In this document: one piece after another, positions 16,913 through 24,772 of the stretch
Layout of the letters: each line of letters starts with the position of its first letter
Position numbering within the stretch: the stretch's first letter is position 1
NCBI GenBank assembly: GCA_017559385.1
Contig: JAFYSK010000051.1
Span: forward strand, 25,778 to 89,777
Direction of reading: 5' to 3'
DNA length: 64,000 nt
DNA from: Paludibacteraceae bacterium
GTDB taxonomy: Bacteria > Bacteroidota > Bacteroidia > Bacteroidales > Paludibacteraceae
The notes under the pieces: model-generated
Told to the model about the DNA's origin: nothing
What the model saw: only the letters and a program-made list of their open reading frames with translations
Database searches by the model: none
Translations under genes and position numbers: made by a program

Positions 16913-18184
16913 TTAAATTACCTTCAATTCACTTCCTGGGAAATAGTGCGCTAAGATTTGCTCGTAGGTATAGCCCTTGTCTGCCATGACGGCTGCACCA
17001 ATTTGGCACAAACCTACACCGTGTCCCCAGCCTGCACCCGTGAGGATGAAGTCGCCATTCTCGTTGCGATCTACTACAAAGGCACTACTGTACAAGTGGC
17101 TCTTGCTCAACCATTTGCGAATTTCTAACTCCTTGCCAATCACCATCGTGCGCTTGCTACCTACAATCTGCATCTCGTACAAACGAGCAGAAGGACCGCG
17201 CTTGATAGGCACTAAGTCAATGATCTCGCCAAAGTCAATACCCGAACGCTCGCGGATAATCTCGCTCAGCTCCTCTTTGGTATATTGTACCGTCCAGCGG
17301 TAGAAATCCTTGGTCTCTTGGTCGTAGTTGTTGAGGACTTGGCTGAGGATGCGCTCGTCGGTGGTATTGCAATAAGCCGAAGGCGAGGTACGGATAAACG
17401 CCTGCGCATTCTCCTCAATAGTCAAATCGGGTAGGGGAGTGCCAATCTCGTCACGAACAGGCTCTAGGTAGTCATAGTGCTCGTTTGCCCATGCGTTTTC
17501 AAAGAGTTCGGTCGCACCACCACATGCCTTGTAGAAGCGTGCGTCGCACACCTTGCCGTCGTACATAAGCACTTGTCCACGGGTGGCATCGATAGCTTTT
17601 TGTACATTAGCAGCAGCCTCTGGGTGCTCATCACGACGGGTGATACCCTCGTAGCGTTGGCAGTGGTCGTCAGCGCATACATCAAAGCCCTCGTGCGCGT
17701 CACGCTCATACCAAACGATGTGCTCGCTTTCGCTCGCGTTCAGTAGCCCTTCGGGCTGTTCAGTGTGGTTCAGTGCTTCGCGTTCAGAGTTGTTCGATGT
17801 TGAACTATTTTGAACTACCGTTGAACAATGTTGAACCGCATTTTGCGGATGCAAAATGGGTTTGAGTACCCAGCTGCGGGAGATAACGGCGTGTGCTTTC
17901 AAGAGCTCCAACGATGAGGTAGCTGACATCTCGGAGGTGATAACCGAACTGAGGTAGTCTTCTACATCGAGGCGGTTGATGGCAGTCTGTGTGCCATCTG
18001 CATTGTCGCGTATTTCAAGTGTACCTTCAAACTCTTGGTCTTCCAAACGATCCCAGTGGAAACCAATACCAATGCGGACATTCTTCAATAGGAAGGTTGG
18101 ATGTTCTGGAGTAGAGTGAGGACCTGGTATAACGGCCTCAATCTTTGGGGCGGTCATTACGCCCACAGCAATTTGGTGTTTCAT
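16913..18184 (-). CDS. SpoIID/LytB domain-containing protein
   Basis: ...AHAVISRSW...FDVCADDHCQRYEG...GWGHGVGLCQIGAAVMA... core motifs. Confidence 0.88.
   Translation of the reverse strand: MKHQIAVGVMTAPKIEAVIPGPHSTPEHPTFLLKNVRIGIGFHWDRLEDQEFEGTLEIRDNADGTQTAINRLDVEDYLSSVITSEMSATSSLELLKAHAVISRSWVLKPILHPQNAVQHCSTVVQNSSTSNNSEREALNHTEQPEGLLNASESEHIVWYERDAHEGFDVCADDHCQRYEGITRRDEHPEAAANVQKAIDATRGQVLMYDGKVCDARFYKACGGATELFENAWANEHYDYLEPVRDEIGTPLPDLTIEENAQAFIRTSPSAYCNTTDERILSQVLNNYDQETKDFYRWTVQYTKEELSEIIRERSGIDFGEIIDLVPIKRGPSARLYEMQIVGSKRTMVIGKELEIRKWLSKSHLYSSAFVVDRNENGDFILTGAGWGHGVGLCQIGAAVMADKGYTYEQILAHYFPGSELKVI
17738..17792. repeat. 55-nt element, copy B (inside a CDS)
   Basis: gttcagtagcccttcgggctgttcagtgtggttcagtgcttcgcgttcagagttg. 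Confidence 0.9.
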
Positions 18185-18656: not shown

Positions 18657-18669
18657 GATGTTATAATGG

Positions 18670-19650
18670 TTATGCGTTTTTACTTGAGTAGAATATATGC
18701 AAGACTGGCAGCGCTGATGATAATCCACAGCAGGACGCCTTGCAGTAACGGACGGATGCCAACGGATTTGATGACTCAACGGAGAGGGAGGCACCAATGA
18801 AGAACATCGTGATGATCAGACCTTTGCGTGCAATACCTGCGATGAATTTACCTATCTCGGGATAGTCCGCTAAGAGGTAAGTGTTGATGAGCATGGCGAC
18901 GATAAAGAACAAGATAAACCAAGGGATACTAATCTTCTTGCCGTCGCTGCGGAAAATCACCGAGGTAACCAATGCTAATGGGATGATCCACAAGGCACGA
19001 GTGAGCTTGATGGTAGTAGCCACTTGCAGGGCTTCTTCGCCATAAGCCGCTCCTGCGCCCACTACCGAACTTGTATCATGGATAGCAATAGCCGCCCATG
19101 TGCCGAACTCTTGTTGGCTTAGTTCCAACCAATGACCCAAAATTGGGAAAAGGAAAAGACCAATGGCGTTAAGGATAAATACCGTAGCTAATGCCATGGA
19201 CATATCCGTGTCTTTGGCCTTGATAATTGGTCCTACTGCAGCGATAGCACTACCGCCGCAGATGGCTGTGCCCGAACTAATAAGGTAGGATGTGTTGCGG
19301 TTGAGTTTCAATACTTTGCAGCCAATAAACATACCAATAAGCAAGGTACCGATGACCGATATAATCGTAAAGAACATGCCTTCCTTACCCGAGGCGAGGG
19401 AGGCTTGAAGGTTCATTCCAAAGCCCAAACCGATAACGGAATATTGGAGGAGTTTCTTGGATATGTTCTTATTGAAAGTGGGGTAAGCTTGTCCGCAGAG
19501 CAGAGCGAATGCTAAGCCGATAAACAGCACCACAGGAGGAGTTACCCACGTCGCAAGGAAACGGAGCGCGGGGATATAATCGCAAAGTAAACACAATGTA
19601 AGCAGGGATAGCAGTGCGATGTAAATATGTCGGTTGTATTGGCGGAGCAT
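18670..19650 (-). CDS. yeiH: YeiH/UPF0324-family membrane protein, 3' end apparently frameshifted
   Basis: Multi-TM protein with ...SSGTAICGGSAIAA.... After ...GASLSVES the frame reads SNPLASVRYCKASCC.... The frame reached by restoring one apparently missing base near 18771-18776 reads IKSVGIRPLLQGVLLWIIISAASLAYILLK*. Confidence 0.8.
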   Translation of the reverse strand: MLRQYNRHIYIALLSLLTLCLLCDYIPALRFLATWVTPPVVLFIGLAFALLCGQAYPTFNKNISKKLLQYSVIGLGFGMNLQASLASGKEGMFFTIISVIGTLLIGMFIGCKVLKLNRNTSYLISSGTAICGGSAIAAVGPIIKAKDTDMSMALATVFILNAIGLFLFPILGHWLELSQQEFGTWAAIAIHDTSSVVGAGAAYGEEALQVATTIKLTRALWIIPLALVTSVIFRSDGKKISIPWFILFFIVAMLINTYLLADYPEIGKFIAGIARKGLIITMFFIGASLSVESSNPLASVRYCKASCCGLSSALPVLHIFYSSKNA

Positions 19651-19672
19651 GGGGGGTTATTTATGAGTTTAT

Positions 19673-19708
19673 CTTAGGAAATAACTTAGGAAAAGACTTA
19701 GGAAAAGT
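19673..19708. repeat. Three tandem 12-mers, CTTAGGAAA[taa/aga/agt]
   Basis: Read directly. Confidence 0.85.
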
Positions 19709-19901
19709 ATGTATTTGCGGTTAGTTTTTGCATGTAAATTAGTGAGTTGTCTAATACGACGACTTGTTATGTCTATTTTAGTTATCAATGATTGCTAATT
19801 CGAATTGCGATTGGCGTATTTGTTTTTGTATAGTAGCTATGTAATTCTTTTGTTGGGTTTGATGAATACTGTCTAAGATTAGTCAATGTTGAAATTATGG
19901 C

Positions 19902-20615
19902 TTATATTTTTCTTCCCTTTTTCAAGATTGTTTGGTATAAGTCGCGAACTTGAACCCTGTACTGTTCAAATTCTAGATAATTAGAATCTTTTATCCATAA
20001 TTGACCTTCTCCAATGTTTCCTCTGTGTTGTCCGTGGGAATAATATCGATTTTCTTCTACTTCTTTGTTGGTCAACACCCAATAATCAATCTTATCTCTC
20101 CAAACTGCTATCCACACGAATACATTACAACAAGCTGGTTTAATTTGTTGAAAGTTCATGTTAAATTTTGCATTACTATTGCTAGATAAGGCCTTCTCGG
20201 TAAGTGTTGCCCCGCTAACACGTTTTACTGCACGTGAGGCTTTAACTTCAACTCGGATACCCTCTAACCATAAGTCATATTGTCCTTTATAGTCAGAGTC
20301 AAGTAACGGAGTTGGATGTTGGAATTCAGGAACTAATTCTGTGAGATGTCGCTGCCCCCACGTCTCTCCAAATGTGCGTGGAGCAATTTCGAATAGGTGA
20401 AGATACTTATTTCGGGTTAGATACTCAGAACGAATACGCAAATATCCTTGCATATCAATGACATGATTTGCAATCAAATGAGATATGATATATTCGAATC
20501 TATTGAAAGGATATACACTATATAGCCTATTCAACAAATCATCACTAAGTTTTACCATCTCCTCTTTTGGGAGTTGTTTCTTAAATTCGTTGAGTTCTTT
20601 AATTAACGTTTCCAT
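19902..20615 (-). CDS. PD-(D/E)XK nuclease-like protein (putative restriction endonuclease subunit, long form)
   Basis: The YDLWLEGIRVEVKASR motif (D...ExK) is followed by QQIK and HRG..EGQ blocks shared with the upstream ORF. It has an extra ~110-aa N-terminal domain. Confidence 0.55.
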   Translation of the reverse strand: METLIKELNEFKKQLPKEEMVKLSDDLLNRLYSVYPFNRFEYIISHLIANHVIDMQGYLRIRSEYLTRNKYLHLFEIAPRTFGETWGQRHLTELVPEFQHPTPLLDSDYKGQYDLWLEGIRVEVKASRAVKRVSGATLTEKALSSNSNAKFNMNFQQIKPACCNVFVWIAVWRDKIDYWVLTNKEVEENRYYSHGQHRGNIGEGQLWIKDSNYLEFEQYRVQVRDLYQTILKKGRKI

Positions 20616-21151
20616 AATTTTAATAATTTTTTTAATAGTACACTTATCATTAACAGAGTGCTGTGATAAGGATTAACTAATTTATATAGTGATTCATACG
20701 TAAAAGTATCTGCTTTAAAATTGTTTATATGGTATTGTAAGTTTTCATTTGTGATATGAAACTGACCTTCGACATAATCCTTTGCCTGTCCTCGATGCAT
20801 GCGATTGCTCCAACCTTGAATAGAGGTTATTGTTTTTGCATCTACTTTAAAGATAAGTATATTGTCCCAGAAGAATAATCCATAATAGAGAATATCGAAC
20901 TCAGAGTGTTTAATTTGCTCAATATTTCGGTAGAATTTTTTCTTCTGACATTCATTATATTTAATTGGAGTATTTTGCCATTTCGCTGTTAAGCATTTTT
21001 CAATAATTGTGGATTCTGTGATGGTTTCATTATCTTTTTGTCTAACTGTTGAGAATTTTATTTCAATACGTTGGCTGTTATTGTTATCCCATAAATCGTA
21101 TTTGGTTGTTGCTTGTGGTGGATAGGAAAGATTATACTTCTTTTTTATCAT
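20603..21151 (-). CDS. PD-(D/E)XK nuclease-like protein (putative restriction endonuclease subunit, short form)
   Basis: YDLWDNNNSQRIEIKFS (D...ExK), EQIK and HRGQAKDYVEGQ. It is collinear with the core of the downstream ORF and overlaps it by 13 nt. Confidence 0.5.
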   Translation of the reverse strand: MIKKKYNLSYPPQATTKYDLWDNNNSQRIEIKFSTVRQKDNETITESTIIEKCLTAKWQNTPIKYNECQKKKFYRNIEQIKHSEFDILYYGLFFWDNILIFKVDAKTITSIQGWSNRMHRGQAKDYVEGQFHITNENLQYHINNFKADTFTYESLYKLVNPYHSTLLMISVLLKKLLKLWKR

Positions 21152-21232
21152 TATTTCAGCAACTTTTCCTAAGCGAGCAGTTTGAAGAAGAAAAATGCCA
21201 TTTCTAAAAAGTTTTTGTTAAAATTGTCATAG

Positions 21233-23116
21233 CTATCGTGATATGTTATTTTGTGTGTTTTTAGAAATAATCCAATTACGCTCAAACTCGGAAATGTTAA
21301 AAATATCAAATACATAATCATCAATGAGAGATTGTAACTCTTGATGTCTAGTAGGTTGTGACAAAATTAGATCTACAATATTTGCGAGATATGAATCCTC
21401 TGGATGGGATAATTTGGGGAAAGGTAAAGTACTTAAATTGCTTTTTAAGACTTTCATGTCCGAGAAACTATTGAGATATAAATATTGATACAGTGCTGAA
21501 TTCAATAAAGCAGCAACCGTCTTTGTTGATATGGTCTCTATCTCAGGAATAAGTATATTTGCGCTATTCAGGCAAAGGCGTTGTTTGTTATCATATGCTA
21601 CAATTGGACGATTCGCAATAAACCGATAGATCAATTTTTCAGGTGCTCGAAAATATTCTTCTTTAGCACATTGCTGAAAATTTATAGGGTCAAACACAAT
21701 GTATTTTTTTTCGTGCGAAACGACAAATGATTCCACCTCTTTGCCCGTAAATATTGGTTCCGCATTACCAGTCTGTTCTAATAATAACTTTTCTTTATTA
21801 TTTCCAGTAACTATTCCTAATGCCCATTTGCTATGGGTTAAATAGTCGTTTGCTTTCTCTGTGACTTTCTGCTTGATGGATTCTTCAATCGGTTCTGTCT
21901 CTATGATTGGAATTTCTGTTTGATCTGAAGATGTTTTAAATTCTATTTGGGAGATGGAATCTTCTTTTTTAACAGAATATACTTGATGTGAAGATGTTGT
22001 TGGATGGAGTATAATGCTAAAATAATCAGTAAATACTCCATCAAAACGTCCGTTATACAATTCTATATGCTCAATCGTAGTGTTCTTTAATATATATGAA
22101 CGTACATCGCGATGTTTTTGAATTTTAAGAAGAGATGTAGGTAAGAGGAATCCTAAGTGTCCATTACTTTTCAATGTTTTCATAGCTTTAACCAAAAACA
22201 TGGATGCGCGTTCTTTAGAATGAATACCTAATACCTTGTATTGATTCTTCCTATCGGCACCCCATGGGGGATTTGTGTATATATAATCATGTTTCTGGGT
22301 GTCATAACACTTTAGAAAATCTGTACATGAAATATTAGGGACAAAATTTTTATTTTGATGCTTGACTAAAAGGTTTACTTTTGTTATAAGAACAGCAAGA
22401 GGATTCAAATCAGTTCCGTATAAATTTTCAGGGTGATCGGTTTCTATGGCAATTAAAAATGCCCCACTACCACAACAAGGGTCGTAAAATGTCTCATTGG
22501 GTTGAATATGTACCCCCTTTAGCATCGTTCTAACAATGCTATTGTTGGTATAATATTGTCCAGTCTCATTGCGTTCTCCTTCTGCCAATAAGGACTGTAA
22601 AATGAAACCTAATATATCTTCATTGCAATCCCAGATTTCATGTGAGATAGTAAGTTTAAGATACTGATATGATTGGTATGGAGCAAGTGTTTTTTGTACA
22701 TTTGGTTTGTGCAGGATATGTGCAGCTTCAAGCTTTTTAATGCATAATGTATATATAATATCTTCCAACGGAGCATCAAAAGACGAAAGTTGTTCAAGTA
22801 AAGTAGTTGCTTGATTTGTTTGAATGTAACTCGAAGCAATCACTTTTTTTGCAGAAAGCGTCTTGTTTGCTCTATTGGTTAAACGTCCTTCTATGGATGT
22901 ATTTAATCTGTGCCAATTAGATTTTGTTGCGTTGCTAATGGTTGACATAACTAAACCCTGTGATTTTGCCTGCAAAGGTACATTTTTTTTATGAGATTTG
23001 CAAGAGAATTGTAATTTTTCGTGTTCGAGTTGCGATATTTGACTACTATCAACGATAGCAGGTGTTGATAAGATGAATTCCGGAAATGGGATTCGTAATG
23101 TTTGTGGATGTGACAT
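21233..23116 (-). CDS. N6-adenine DNA methyltransferase, gamma class (Eco57I/TaqI-like, with a C-terminal specificity domain)
   Basis: Motif I FYDPCCGSGAFL, motif IV YTNPPWG, and later GIVTGNNK / IFTGKEVESF blocks. An alternative start is M57 at 22948. Confidence 0.88.
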   Translation of the reverse strand: MSHPQTLRIPFPEFILSTPAIVDSSQISQLEHEKLQFSCKSHKKNVPLQAKSQGLVMSTISNATKSNWHRLNTSIEGRLTNRANKTLSAKKVIASSYIQTNQATTLLEQLSSFDAPLEDIIYTLCIKKLEAAHILHKPNVQKTLAPYQSYQYLKLTISHEIWDCNEDILGFILQSLLAEGERNETGQYYTNNSIVRTMLKGVHIQPNETFYDPCCGSGAFLIAIETDHPENLYGTDLNPLAVLITKVNLLVKHQNKNFVPNISCTDFLKCYDTQKHDYIYTNPPWGADRKNQYKVLGIHSKERASMFLVKAMKTLKSNGHLGFLLPTSLLKIQKHRDVRSYILKNTTIEHIELYNGRFDGVFTDYFSIILHPTTSSHQVYSVKKEDSISQIEFKTSSDQTEIPIIETEPIEESIKQKVTEKANDYLTHSKWALGIVTGNNKEKLLLEQTGNAEPIFTGKEVESFVVSHEKKYIVFDPINFQQCAKEEYFRAPEKLIYRFIANRPIVAYDNKQRLCLNSANILIPEIETISTKTVAALLNSALYQYLYLNSFSDMKVLKSNLSTLPFPKLSHPEDSYLANIVDLILSQPTRHQELQSLIDDYVFDIFNISEFERNWIISKNTQNNISR

Positions 23117-23163
23117 GATGAGTAGTTTTTAGTAGTTAAACATACGTTTTTTGAAATCGGCTG

Positions 23164-23171
23164 CAAAATTA
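23164..23171 (-). promoter_or_regulatory. -7 box TAATTTTG (minus strand) for the methyltransferase operon
   Basis: Plus-strand caaaatta, 48 nt upstream of the ATG at 23116. Confidence 0.45.
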
Positions 23172-23208
23172 CTATACCAAACTGCTAAAACTTGTCAGTA
23201 TGTAGAGA

Positions 23209-23245
23209 AAAATGCACTTTTTTTTGCGGAAAAGTGCATTTTTTT
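23209..23245. terminator. Bidirectional hairpin with T-runs on both sides
   Basis: aatgcactttt, an 8-nt loop, then aaaagtgcatt followed by ttttt. Confidence 0.55.
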
Positions 23246-23314
23246 AGGAACTGAGTTAACTTTCTTAGGATATGAGTCAACTTTTTTAGGAATAGAGTCA
23301 ACCTTTTTAGGAAA
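23241..23314. repeat. Four units of about 21-22 nt, each containing TTAGGA[A/T] and GAGT[T/C]AAC
   Basis: tttttaggaactgagttaac / tttcttaggatatgagtcaac / ttttttaggaatagagtcaacc / tttttaggaaagc. Confidence 0.8.
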
Positions 23315-23336
23315 GCAATCTTAAGAAAAGTGCGGA

Positions 23337-23371
23337 GTTCTTAGCCGCAAGGGCACGATAACGCTTCGCTC
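23337..23371. repeat. Dispersed repeat GTTCTTAGCCRCAAGGGCACGATARCGCTTCGCTC, copy 1
   Basis: It matches 43906-43940 and 43973-44007 with 1-2 mismatches. Confidence 0.85.
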
Positions 23372-23748
23372 TTCTCTCGGTCGTCTCTCGGTTGTCTCTC
23401 GGTGGAGTAGGGAAAGGTAAAGAGGAAAACAAATCTTAATAAAAAGCCTTTTTTGAGATTTTGAGTTCTTAGGTTCATCCTTGGTTCGTCCTTGGTTCGT
23501 CCTTGGTTCTTCCCTGGTCTTTTACCCGCGAGGAATAGGGAAGGTACAACGGGAAGGAATCTTAAGAAATGTACGCAAATTGATTATCCTACTCGCAGCA
23601 AACTGCTCGAGAAATCTAAACAATCTAAACTAAATACAGAGTACTCCGTAATGAATTGCTACCGCTCCTCATTTCGCTAGCGAAACTCGTGCGCTGAATC
23701 TTCTGCAAATACCAAAGATAATGAATTGTTGTGTGAGCGAAATAAAAT

Positions 23749-24681
23749 CTAAACTATTTCATCTGCCACTTCGCGGATGATATCGCGGAGTTTGGATGGG
23801 GTGAGGCGGTCGAAGCTCTCGCGGTTGGCTACAATACCTATGCCGCCCATCTCTACTGTACCTGGAGAGAAAAGAATACGTTCATTCTCAGGCGCAAAGA
23901 AGCATTGAGGACGGGATTCGCGGCGGAAGAACACGATTGTGTTGAATCTAGGCGATGAGGCGATAAGGCTATTAGGCGAAGAGGCTGGCTCGTACCACGA
24001 GATGATATTCCAGCGAGGCTCCCATTCTTCGGTGCGGGAAGCACCTGCGGTGAGTGAGCCTGTTTGGCTGGCGTTCTCTGGAATACTTGCCATGGATAGC
24101 ACTTTTTCTAGTGCTGCCAAATGGGATTGTAAATCAGATTCTTGCACCAATACGGCATTGGCGTAATTGGTGTCAAAATGATCTTCTATCGGCATACTAT
24201 GTCTTGGAACTGCTTGGAAGTGCATATGATCTGGCGCACTAGCACCACACATAGGACCGTTATAGAAAATACTCATCTCGGGCATTGCCTGAGCCAAATG
24301 CAACATTGACTCCATGTGCGGAGCAAAAGTTTGACGCTCGTGGATAGCGGACGAGATGGTGAAATGGTGGTTAAAGATAGGGAAGGGGTTGACACGAATA
24401 AAATACGTTTGACCCGTAGGGGAGTCCCAAACGGTGGTGAGCTGTAGAGGCTCTAAACCATCAGGACAAAGGAAGCATGCGCGCTTTTGCAAGGCCTCTG
24501 GACTGACGTCTGCCATCACACTACGCACGCGAGCTGGGTTGAAAAAGAGCTTGGCAGGAAAACCGTCGATGGTCATATCTTTGACTTCGACCTGATCCAA
24601 AGCTCCGTAGTTAACGAAAGCTCTCCCGCGAAGCTCAAGTTCGCGGGAGAACATCTCGGATATTTGTGTATAGAGGTTCAT
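23749..24681 (-). CDS. GalT/HIT-like (HxHxQ) nucleotidyltransferase-fold protein, probably the DUF4922 family
   Basis: ...CFLCP...RVNPFPIF.HH....APDHMHFQAVP. The family name is recalled from memory, not searched. Confidence 0.7.
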   Translation of the reverse strand: MNLYTQISEMFSRELELRGRAFVNYGALDQVEVKDMTIDGFPAKLFFNPARVRSVMADVSPEALQKRACFLCPDGLEPLQLTTVWDSPTGQTYFIRVNPFPIFNHHFTISSAIHERQTFAPHMESMLHLAQAMPEMSIFYNGPMCGASAPDHMHFQAVPRHSMPIEDHFDTNYANAVLVQESDLQSHLAALEKVLSMASIPENASQTGSLTAGASRTEEWEPRWNIISWYEPASSPNSLIASSPRFNTIVFFRRESRPQCFFAPENERILFSPGTVEMGGIGIVANRESFDRLTPSKLRDIIREVADEIV

Positions 24682-24683
24682 AA

Positions 24684-24772
24684 TTGTTCAATGTTGTTCA
24701 ACATGGTTCAATGTAGTGCAATGTTGAACGCGAAGCGCTGAACTATTTTGAACAGCGCATGCGCTATTGAAC
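24684..24772. repeat. Word array of GTTCAA / TTGAAC units
   Basis: ttgttcaa tgttgttcaa catggttcaa tgtagtgcaa tgttgaac gcgaagcgc tgaac tatt ttgaac ... ttgaac. Confidence 0.8.

Follow-up and report, generated by a model that had tools for sequence, protein, structure and literature searches.

A partly decayed type II restriction-modification (R-M) island, which encodes two paralogous nucleases and goes back to a four-gene cassette, is located on the minus strand of the stretch analysed here, a window of 64,000 nucleotides from a Paludibacteraceae bacterium (assembly GCA_017559385.1, 85% complete; contig JAFYSK010000051.1, positions 25,778 to 89,777 of the forward strand). In relatives the complete cassette consists of M1 (gamma-class N6-adenine DNA methyltransferase), RA (accessory short-form PD-(D/E)XK nuclease), RB (principal long-form PD-(D/E)XK endonuclease) and M2 (beta-class methyltransferase), in this order. 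The window carries intact M1 and RB and a frameshifted RA, and M2 was not found in the host assembly. Taken as a whole, the reading that we prefer, at somewhat less than even confidence, is that the locus is a degenerate M1-RA-RB-M2 cassette, in which RA and RB probably formed a heterodimer ancestrally, M2 has been deleted and RA has been disabled. Below, L-numbers denote contigs carrying relatives and G-numbers denote genomes, the host genome being G000.

Gene organization of the R-M island

Three open reading frames (ORFs) are aligned on the minus strand, coding for proteins of 627 aa (21233-23116), 182 aa (20603-21151) and 237 aa (19902-20615). A first-pass annotation, made from the sequence alone, had described two small ORFs overlapping by 13 nt and following a methyltransferase with the motifs DPCCGSGAFL and NPPWG, and this description proved accurate. 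The overlap (20603-20615, minus strand), in which the stop codon of RA lies within the start of RB, may provide translational coupling, and it is also present in L010, L014 and L018. The three genes constitute a low-GC island of 3.3 kb (19897-23244; GC content 30-36% vs about 47% in the flanks), with 98.3% identity to contig L013, the nearest relative of the window.

The 627-aa ORF (M1) was matched with N6_Mtase (1.4e-22, residues 168-351), Eco57I (8.7e-14) and TaqI_C (2e-23, residues 454-565) of Pfam and with MTase_II of PADLOC (1.1e-76). Since motif I (DPCCGSGAFL) precedes motif IV (NPPWG) and the target recognition domain (TRD) is C-terminal, M1 was classified as a gamma-class adenine methylase, in agreement with the Eco57I/TaqI-like class proposed at first pass. 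The gene is intact and its product is 99% identical to the L013 copy; in relatives the start codon lies about 56 codons further in than that of the 627-aa ORF. The TRD is the most conserved part of M1, being 88-92% conserved between one paired and one solo cassette. Within the host assembly M1 is the sole PF02384/PF12950 gene and the only gamma- or beta-class methyltransferase found, the other adenine methyltransferase being a single Dam-like D12-class gene; no C5 methyltransferase was found in this assembly.

The 237-aa ORF (RB) is intact and was matched over nearly its full length with the REBASE-derived REase_II model PDLC03414 of PADLOC (1.6e-59). The first-pass annotation had been unable to assign this ORF to a family; it is a full-length member of a PADLOC family of type II restriction endonucleases, which mostly occur without a partner nuclease. 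The family is large, as RB gave 3708 matches (about 3,700 clusters at 50% identity), and solo homologues score up to 5e-67 on the same model. The commonest context of RB is a plain two-gene M1-RB unit, methylase first and endonuclease second, with overlap of the genes. Because M1-RB is a complete two-gene system in most relatives, these two genes most likely still operate in the host as a homodimeric type IIP-like enzyme and its protecting methylase. A tblastn search of RB against plasmids gave no match.

Paralogy and catalytic core of RA and RB

The view that the two small ORFs are diverged duplicates of one nuclease core was borne out by three comparisons. RA and RB were aligned by BLASTP with an E-value of 2e-5 for the 182-aa form of RA and 3e-8 for the intact form; both are recognized by one PADLOC REase_II model; and alignment of the two family profiles by hhalign gave a probability of 99.4% (E 5.9e-21), with residues 73-230 of RB aligned to residues 11-185 of RA. 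The match of RA to PDLC03414 is weak (8.6e-4 for the 182-aa form, 7e-5 for the intact form), and neither RA nor RB gave any match in Pfam or NCBIfam. The N-terminal helical domain by which RB exceeds its paralogue is about 70 aa long when compared with the intact 208-aa RA, shorter than the approximately 110 aa estimated earlier.

The D...ExK signature noted at first pass is conserved in all clades of the family. In RB the triad D114/E123/K125 is invariant in 52 sequences and located on strands 115-117/120-128 of the AlphaFold2 (AF2) model (pLDDT 91.6). In RA, for which 61 sequences were compared, E56 and K58 show no variation and D45 is retained by at least 90%, the triad lying on strands 46-48/53-61 of the model of the intact protein (pLDDT 89.2). 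All clades, the principal and the accessory ones alike, retain the triad together with six more residues of the core. The top Foldseek matches of both models were NhoI and I-Ssp6803I (probability 0.97-1.0, target TM score 0.42-0.56, E about 1e-3, 11-14% identity), followed by DpnI, nuclease domains of SPARDA systems and NaeI. As judged from the D...(D/E)-x-K motif and the weakly matching alpha/beta fold of the models, RA and RB are members of the PD-(D/E)XK superfamily and are predicted to cleave DNA. Searches of the sequences in PDB, with the single proteins and with profiles, detected no relatives of RA or RB. RA residue E25, considered as a catalytic residue lost by the frameshift described below, was dropped as a candidate, since it aligns with a variable position of RB (Q/E/H).

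A third possibility for RA, besides partner subunit and independent enzyme, is a decaying or regulatory duplicate without a nuclease role, such as a dominant-negative modulator of RB or genomic debris. RA is indeed dispensable, often broken and fast-evolving, and long and short forms of RA replace each other beside RBs that are 85-94% identical. Every accessory clade, however, keeps the D/E/K triad and the six further core residues, and between lineages the RAs of the window type share 60-97% identity. Because of this conservation, selection on catalysis appears to operate in RA, and we regard a role without nuclease activity as very improbable.

Frameshift of RA in the window

The 182-aa ORF had been taken as a whole gene, but it turned out to be the remnant of a frameshifted RA of 208 aa. 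The homologues of RA are all 205-212 aa long with a conserved N-terminus, and the ATG used by these homologues is present in the window at 21230, 2 nt past the stop codon of M1, so that the complete RA gene spans 20603-21230 on the minus strand. DNA alignment with L010, L014 and L018 located the lesion between 21204 and 21216 on the same strand: the run of A at 21212-21216 has five A in the window vs four in L010 and L013, and the extra A leads the RA frame to a premature TAG at 21204-21206. The 182-aa ORF (20603-21151, minus strand) is a restart at the internal Met27, as judged from the N-termini of the homologues, and it is devoid of the first helix of the predicted core (3-14 in the AF2 model of intact RA) and of the larger part of the second (17-31). 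Apart from this lesion RA is well preserved, being 97% identical to a 208-aa homologue (P0121).

If the extra A were an error of assembly or sequencing, RA would be intact, and M1-RA-RB would be a working two-subunit endonuclease with one methylase, as it apparently is in L010-13, the heterodimer itself being the same as in the reading that we prefer. The outcome would in essence be the picture drawn at first pass. Such a gene arrangement is found in nature: in L010-13, from four different samples, M1-RA-RB is present with the 208-aa RA intact and M2 absent, and pairs of short-form paralogues with one gamma-class methyltransferase within 4 kb recur (L118, L127 and L093). The indel lies in a short homopolymer, and a second single-base indel within coding sequence is found close by, 2.4 kb away in yeiH of the same assembly. 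On the other hand, homopolymer errors typically arise in runs longer than five A, the indel of yeiH lies outside any homopolymer, and real losses of RA are common, the gene being cut to 81 aa in L008/9 and reduced to a fragment in L024. Over 3.35 kb the frameshift is the sole indel within coding sequence relative to L013. We consider an assembly error as the origin of the extra A less probable than a real lesion, yet well within reach; the full alternative, with a working M1-RA-RB enzyme in the host, is rather unlikely.

The yeiH lesion (about 18775, minus strand) is the lack of one base in comparison with G412, close to the 3' end of the gene. It could be either real or an assembly indel, and the trust placed in the RA frameshift depends in part on it.

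Four-gene cassette of relatives and loss of M2

The occurrence of a single methyltransferase beside two nucleases had been presented at first pass as an uncommon state. Comparison with relatives indicates that this state is secondary and that M2 is deleted in the lineage of the window, which accounts for the apparent oddity. The four-gene cassette M1-RA-RB-M2 was identified in lineages independent of each other, namely L006/7, L014-21, L022, L042, L051 and L209. M2 is an N6_N4 methylase of 396-399 aa, of the beta class and CcrM-like, with about 50% identity to CcrM across residues 30-257, which cover the catalytic and recognition module (E 3e-55). The loss of M2 is regarded as secondary because scars of the gene persist: the last 24 codons remain in L013, about 250 nt after RB, and 41 codons from the start of the gene, with a stop codon in frame, survive in L029 (E 6e-15).

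The genes of the cassette lie close together, with 0-26 nt of overlap or spacer between them, and RA of relatives is always located directly upstream of RB and overlaps it. Among the RB-type cassettes, all 8 of the 8 lineages with RA carry M2 or its scar, vs 3 of the 16 lineages without RA (L025, L030/32 and L206; Fisher p 2e-4, lineages being counted without phylogenetic correction). Between cassettes the identity is 88-94% for RB and M2 and only 64-75% for M1, and RA is of either the long or the short form.

In a tree of 116 family members the long and the short forms were split with 100/100 support. The principal nucleases are solo or paired, at times as near-identical sisters (L025 solo vs L022 paired), while four accessory clades, namely long RA, window-type short RA, the short form that is second of a pair, and an insertion-bearing short form, occur only in pairs. 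The sister short-form family of RA comprises about 428 clusters at 50% identity, typically of 175-195 aa, and its members are mostly stand-alone nucleases with a convergent gamma-class methyltransferase; the search for short-form loci was made with a 10-sequence alignment, as a broad 67-sequence alignment was too diverse. The short-form family also includes recurrent tandem paralogue pairs which share one gamma-class methyltransferase within 4 kb (L118, L127 and L093).

The presence of a methyltransferase next to the homologues, to which the first-pass annotation had tied the R-M interpretation, was a general feature: a gamma- or beta-class gene adjoins nearly every RB-type or short-type locus that reaches past the nuclease gene, the loci without one being a few contigs with limited flanks (for instance L102 and L112).

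Proposed partnership of RA and RB

The pair RA-RB may reasonably be read as a two-subunit, Type IIT-like enzyme, the evidence for dimerization being indirect: the accessory clades occur only in pairs, and the genes overlap. In the ancestral cassette RA would most likely have paired with RB in a heterodimer whose two catalytic sites differ, and M1 and M2 would each have protected one strand or half-site. If RA is the partner subunit of RB and M2 the accompanying second methylase, then the absence of RA without RB, the overlap of their genes and the travelling of RA together with M2 are all accounted for. After the deletion of M2 and the frameshift of RA, the host would most likely have lost the accessory function. 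In L010-13 and L029 the loss of M2 may be tolerated if methylation by M1 of the shared site still protects it.

At the C-terminus of the window-type RA there is one more helix, about 20 aa long (model positions 191-207; residues about 186-208 in L010:7001-7624), which is missing from typical stand-alone short-form enzymes and is coded by the part of the gene that overlaps the start of RB. As judged from the model, this helix might be a docking element for RB.

Several observations weigh against a heterodimer. RB works without RA in most genomes, so that RA is dispensable. No natural RA-RB fusion was found. Proteins of 310-410 aa which match the RA profile twice were examined as tandem fusions and rejected, as they are single cores with a long insertion before KQHRGN.GEGQFH. 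RA is intact in the absence of M2 in L010-13 and L029, and no other M2 was found in the assembly of the L029 genome; M2 is thus not strictly needed. Finally, the short-form restriction enzymes to which RA is related stand alone, each with a methyltransferase of its own, and RA could likewise act alone.

The main rival is a reading in which two independent R-M systems are nested, one composed of M1 and RB and the other of an RA homodimer and M2 (possibly GANTC-type), RA having been inactivated as a liability after the loss of M2. In agreement with this model, RA is found among RB cassettes only where M2 is or was present, its frameshift falls in a genome without M2, its short-form relatives are self-sufficient, and CcrM, to which M2 is about 50% identical, belongs to a family with its own cognate endonucleases. 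The arrangement of the genes fits less well: RA and M2 are not adjacent but separated by RB, the window-type and long RA clades are never seen without RB, and the paralogue pairs of the short family share one methyltransferase. Moreover, intact RA without M2, as in L010-13 and L029, should be lethal under nested systems, and specific avoidance of GANTC was not detected in the genomes with RA and M2. Two nested systems are, in our judgement, unlikely.

An extension of the heterodimer reading is a stepwise series from homodimeric type IIP to heterodimeric Type IIT enzymes, in which a principal nuclease (RB or its short-form equivalent) with one methylase is joined by plug-in accessory paralogues of the four clades (long RA, short RA and the two other short ones), so that two unlike catalytic sites are combined. 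The RB lineage would gain an accessory only where M2 is available, and the accessory would widen or skew the recognition site, for instance to a site related to TCGA/GTMKAC. We propose this series tentatively and consider it somewhat improbable.

Candidate recognition site

Among 2078 hexamers the three with the lowest observed/expected ratio (O/E) in the host genome were GTCGAC (0.30), GTAGAC/GTCTAC (0.36) and GTATAC (0.53), which make up exactly the GTMKAC set, while the remaining GTNNAC words gave O/E of 0.87-1.07. Full avoidance of GTMKAC was observed in 3 of the 5 other cassette-bearing genomes, namely G401 (solo M1-RB), G403 (four-gene cassette) and G405 (M1-RB-M2). In the pooled flanks of 27 unrelated RB-type contigs GTAGAC was found 29 times against 50 expected, vs an O/E of 1.06-1.15 in the flanks of short-type contigs. 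Methyltransferases for TCGA-related sites have a TaqI-like TRD, as M1 has.

Other genomes speak against a tight link between GTMKAC and the cassette. Only GTCGAC was depleted in G402 (solo M1-RB), and the GTMKAC words were only partly avoided in G404 (four-gene cassette). In G075 and G412, of the same genus and without the cassette, all the GTMKAC words were avoided. For genomes of the same order without the cassette, all these words were low in G424, where counts are few, and in G429 and G243 the palindromes were low and GTAGAC was not clearly depleted. The chances that GTMKAC is the site of M1-RB thus appear about evenly balanced from these word counts.

GTMKAC is a degenerate palindrome which includes the asymmetric pair GTAGAC/GTCTAC, and it is avoided also by solo-RB genomes. 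A half-site model, with GTA recognized by RB, GTC by RA and GTAGAC by the heterodimer, was contradicted, as G401 (solo RB) and G405 (M1-RB-M2) avoid all three words. GANTC avoidance as a signature of RA and M2 was rejected, since the genome classes do not differ, and a blind search for words avoided only in the RA-bearing genomes (two genomes) gave nothing convincing. Literature on GTMKAC and M.AccI was searched and gave nothing useful.

Other words that rank with the most depleted ones of the host are the pentamers TCAGA and TCCGA (TCNGA-like) and TCGCA. For the short-form sister family, not a single CTCGAG occurs in the pooled flanks, about 110 kb in all, of 31 unrelated contigs with a short-form nuclease and a gamma-class methyltransferase (L052-L129), 0 being observed against 24 expected (0 vs 17 in the flanks of the short type and 0 vs 7 in pair loci). 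This absence suggests an XhoI-like specificity of the short-form family.

Comparison with known restriction enzymes

Type IIT enzymes are normally accompanied by two methyltransferases, and some consist of one large and one small subunit (PMC4081073). Two methyltransferases, M1 and M2, are present in the relatives, whereas the window has M1 alone. The relatives also encode two paralogues with intact triads, RA being frameshifted in the window. The native cassette is like BbvCI and Bpu10I of this type in that paralogous nuclease genes, each with its own triad, are located side by side together with two methyltransferases (PMC4081073, PMC6326814). In contrast to these enzymes, RB is also a widespread stand-alone enzyme, the methyltransferases are of the gamma and beta adenine classes, and the RA-RB dimer and an asymmetric site are hypothetical; no match of sequence or fold was found between BbvCI and RA or RB. 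BsrDI, BtsI and BspD6I share with the pair the unequal size of subunits, the smaller RA being little more than a catalytic core. Their large subunits, however, are 2-3 times bigger and unrelated to the small partners, whereas RB and RA are paralogues of 237 and 208 aa.

BslI, with two nuclease genes and one methyltransferase, has the gene content of the window, of L010-13 and of the short-short pairs. It differs in its alpha2-beta2 structure, its palindromic interrupted site and its large N4-cytosine methyltransferase (PMC4081073), and the single methyltransferase of the window is a secondary loss. The M1-RB unit is like the PDLC03414 family with a TaqI_C-type gamma methyltransferase, given the near full-length match of RB and the order of methylase then endonuclease with overlap; the accessory RA and M2 are extra to this two-gene pattern. 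To AccI-type enzymes (GT^MKAC, with an m6A methylase) the likeness lies in the candidate site, the host avoiding exactly GTMKAC, and in the TaqI-like TRD of M1. Avoidance of these words extends across the genus, however, and does not closely follow the cassette, GTMKAC being a candidate specificity only. M2 of the relatives is similar to the beta-class GANTC methylases CcrM and M.HinfI, but its C-terminal region of about 150 aa differs from that of CcrM, and GANTC is only a candidate specificity. The small PD-(D/E)XK core resembles NhoI and I-Ssp6803I at the level of the superfamily only.

The heterodimer idea is a plausible hypothesis. If it is true, RA and RB would represent a family of two-subunit restriction enzymes that is new and occurs very widely, and the pairs would be candidate sources of strand-specific nicking enzymes. 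As solo and paired states and states of methyltransferase gain and loss coexist, this family would allow a direct test of how asymmetric Type IIT enzymes arose from symmetric ones. The accessory subunit escapes genome annotation, since neither form of the nuclease is recognized by Pfam or NCBIfam and PADLOC performs well with the long form only. For the host genome itself the significance is modest, the cassette being partly decayed; what is left of it, within a defence hotspot, resembles a common R-M system of two genes.

Genomic setting

The island is located within a variable defence hotspot between a DUF4922 gene and rhodanese/yeiH (rhodanese/SpoIID), at 18660-23760 of the window, where the hotspot contains yeiH and the R-M cassette. 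The same hotspot is empty in G417 of the same genus (G417:C32:53300-54000, L205), is occupied by a GmrSD_N (GmrSD-like) protein and a HipA_2 kinase in G412 (G412:C24:21500-27200, L204), and contains the R-M cassette with a TIR_2-like gene in L010 (L010:4546-9432). Insertion of the L209 cassette into an AMP-binding gene was considered and rejected, the flanking ORFs being paralogues with complete C-termini.

The left border of the island is the intergenic stretch 23126-23710. This stretch and two others (24675-24772 and 17757-17837) match dozens of short dispersed copies in G412 and G417 of the same genus.

Genes for Peptidase_M78 (ImmA/IrrE-like), fused to or beside Mrr_cat or a helix-turn-helix (HTH) domain, recurrently adjoin the cassettes of the family in unrelated contigs (L014:4829-6088, L018:4687-5931, L118:1582-3936 and L093:5282-7153). 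A distant cassette in L044 (214-3248), with RA 42% and RB 36% identical and a convergent gamma-class methyltransferase, is preceded by an 87-aa HTH_3 controller-like gene. As predicted from this gene, classical control by a C-protein exists in the nuclease family.

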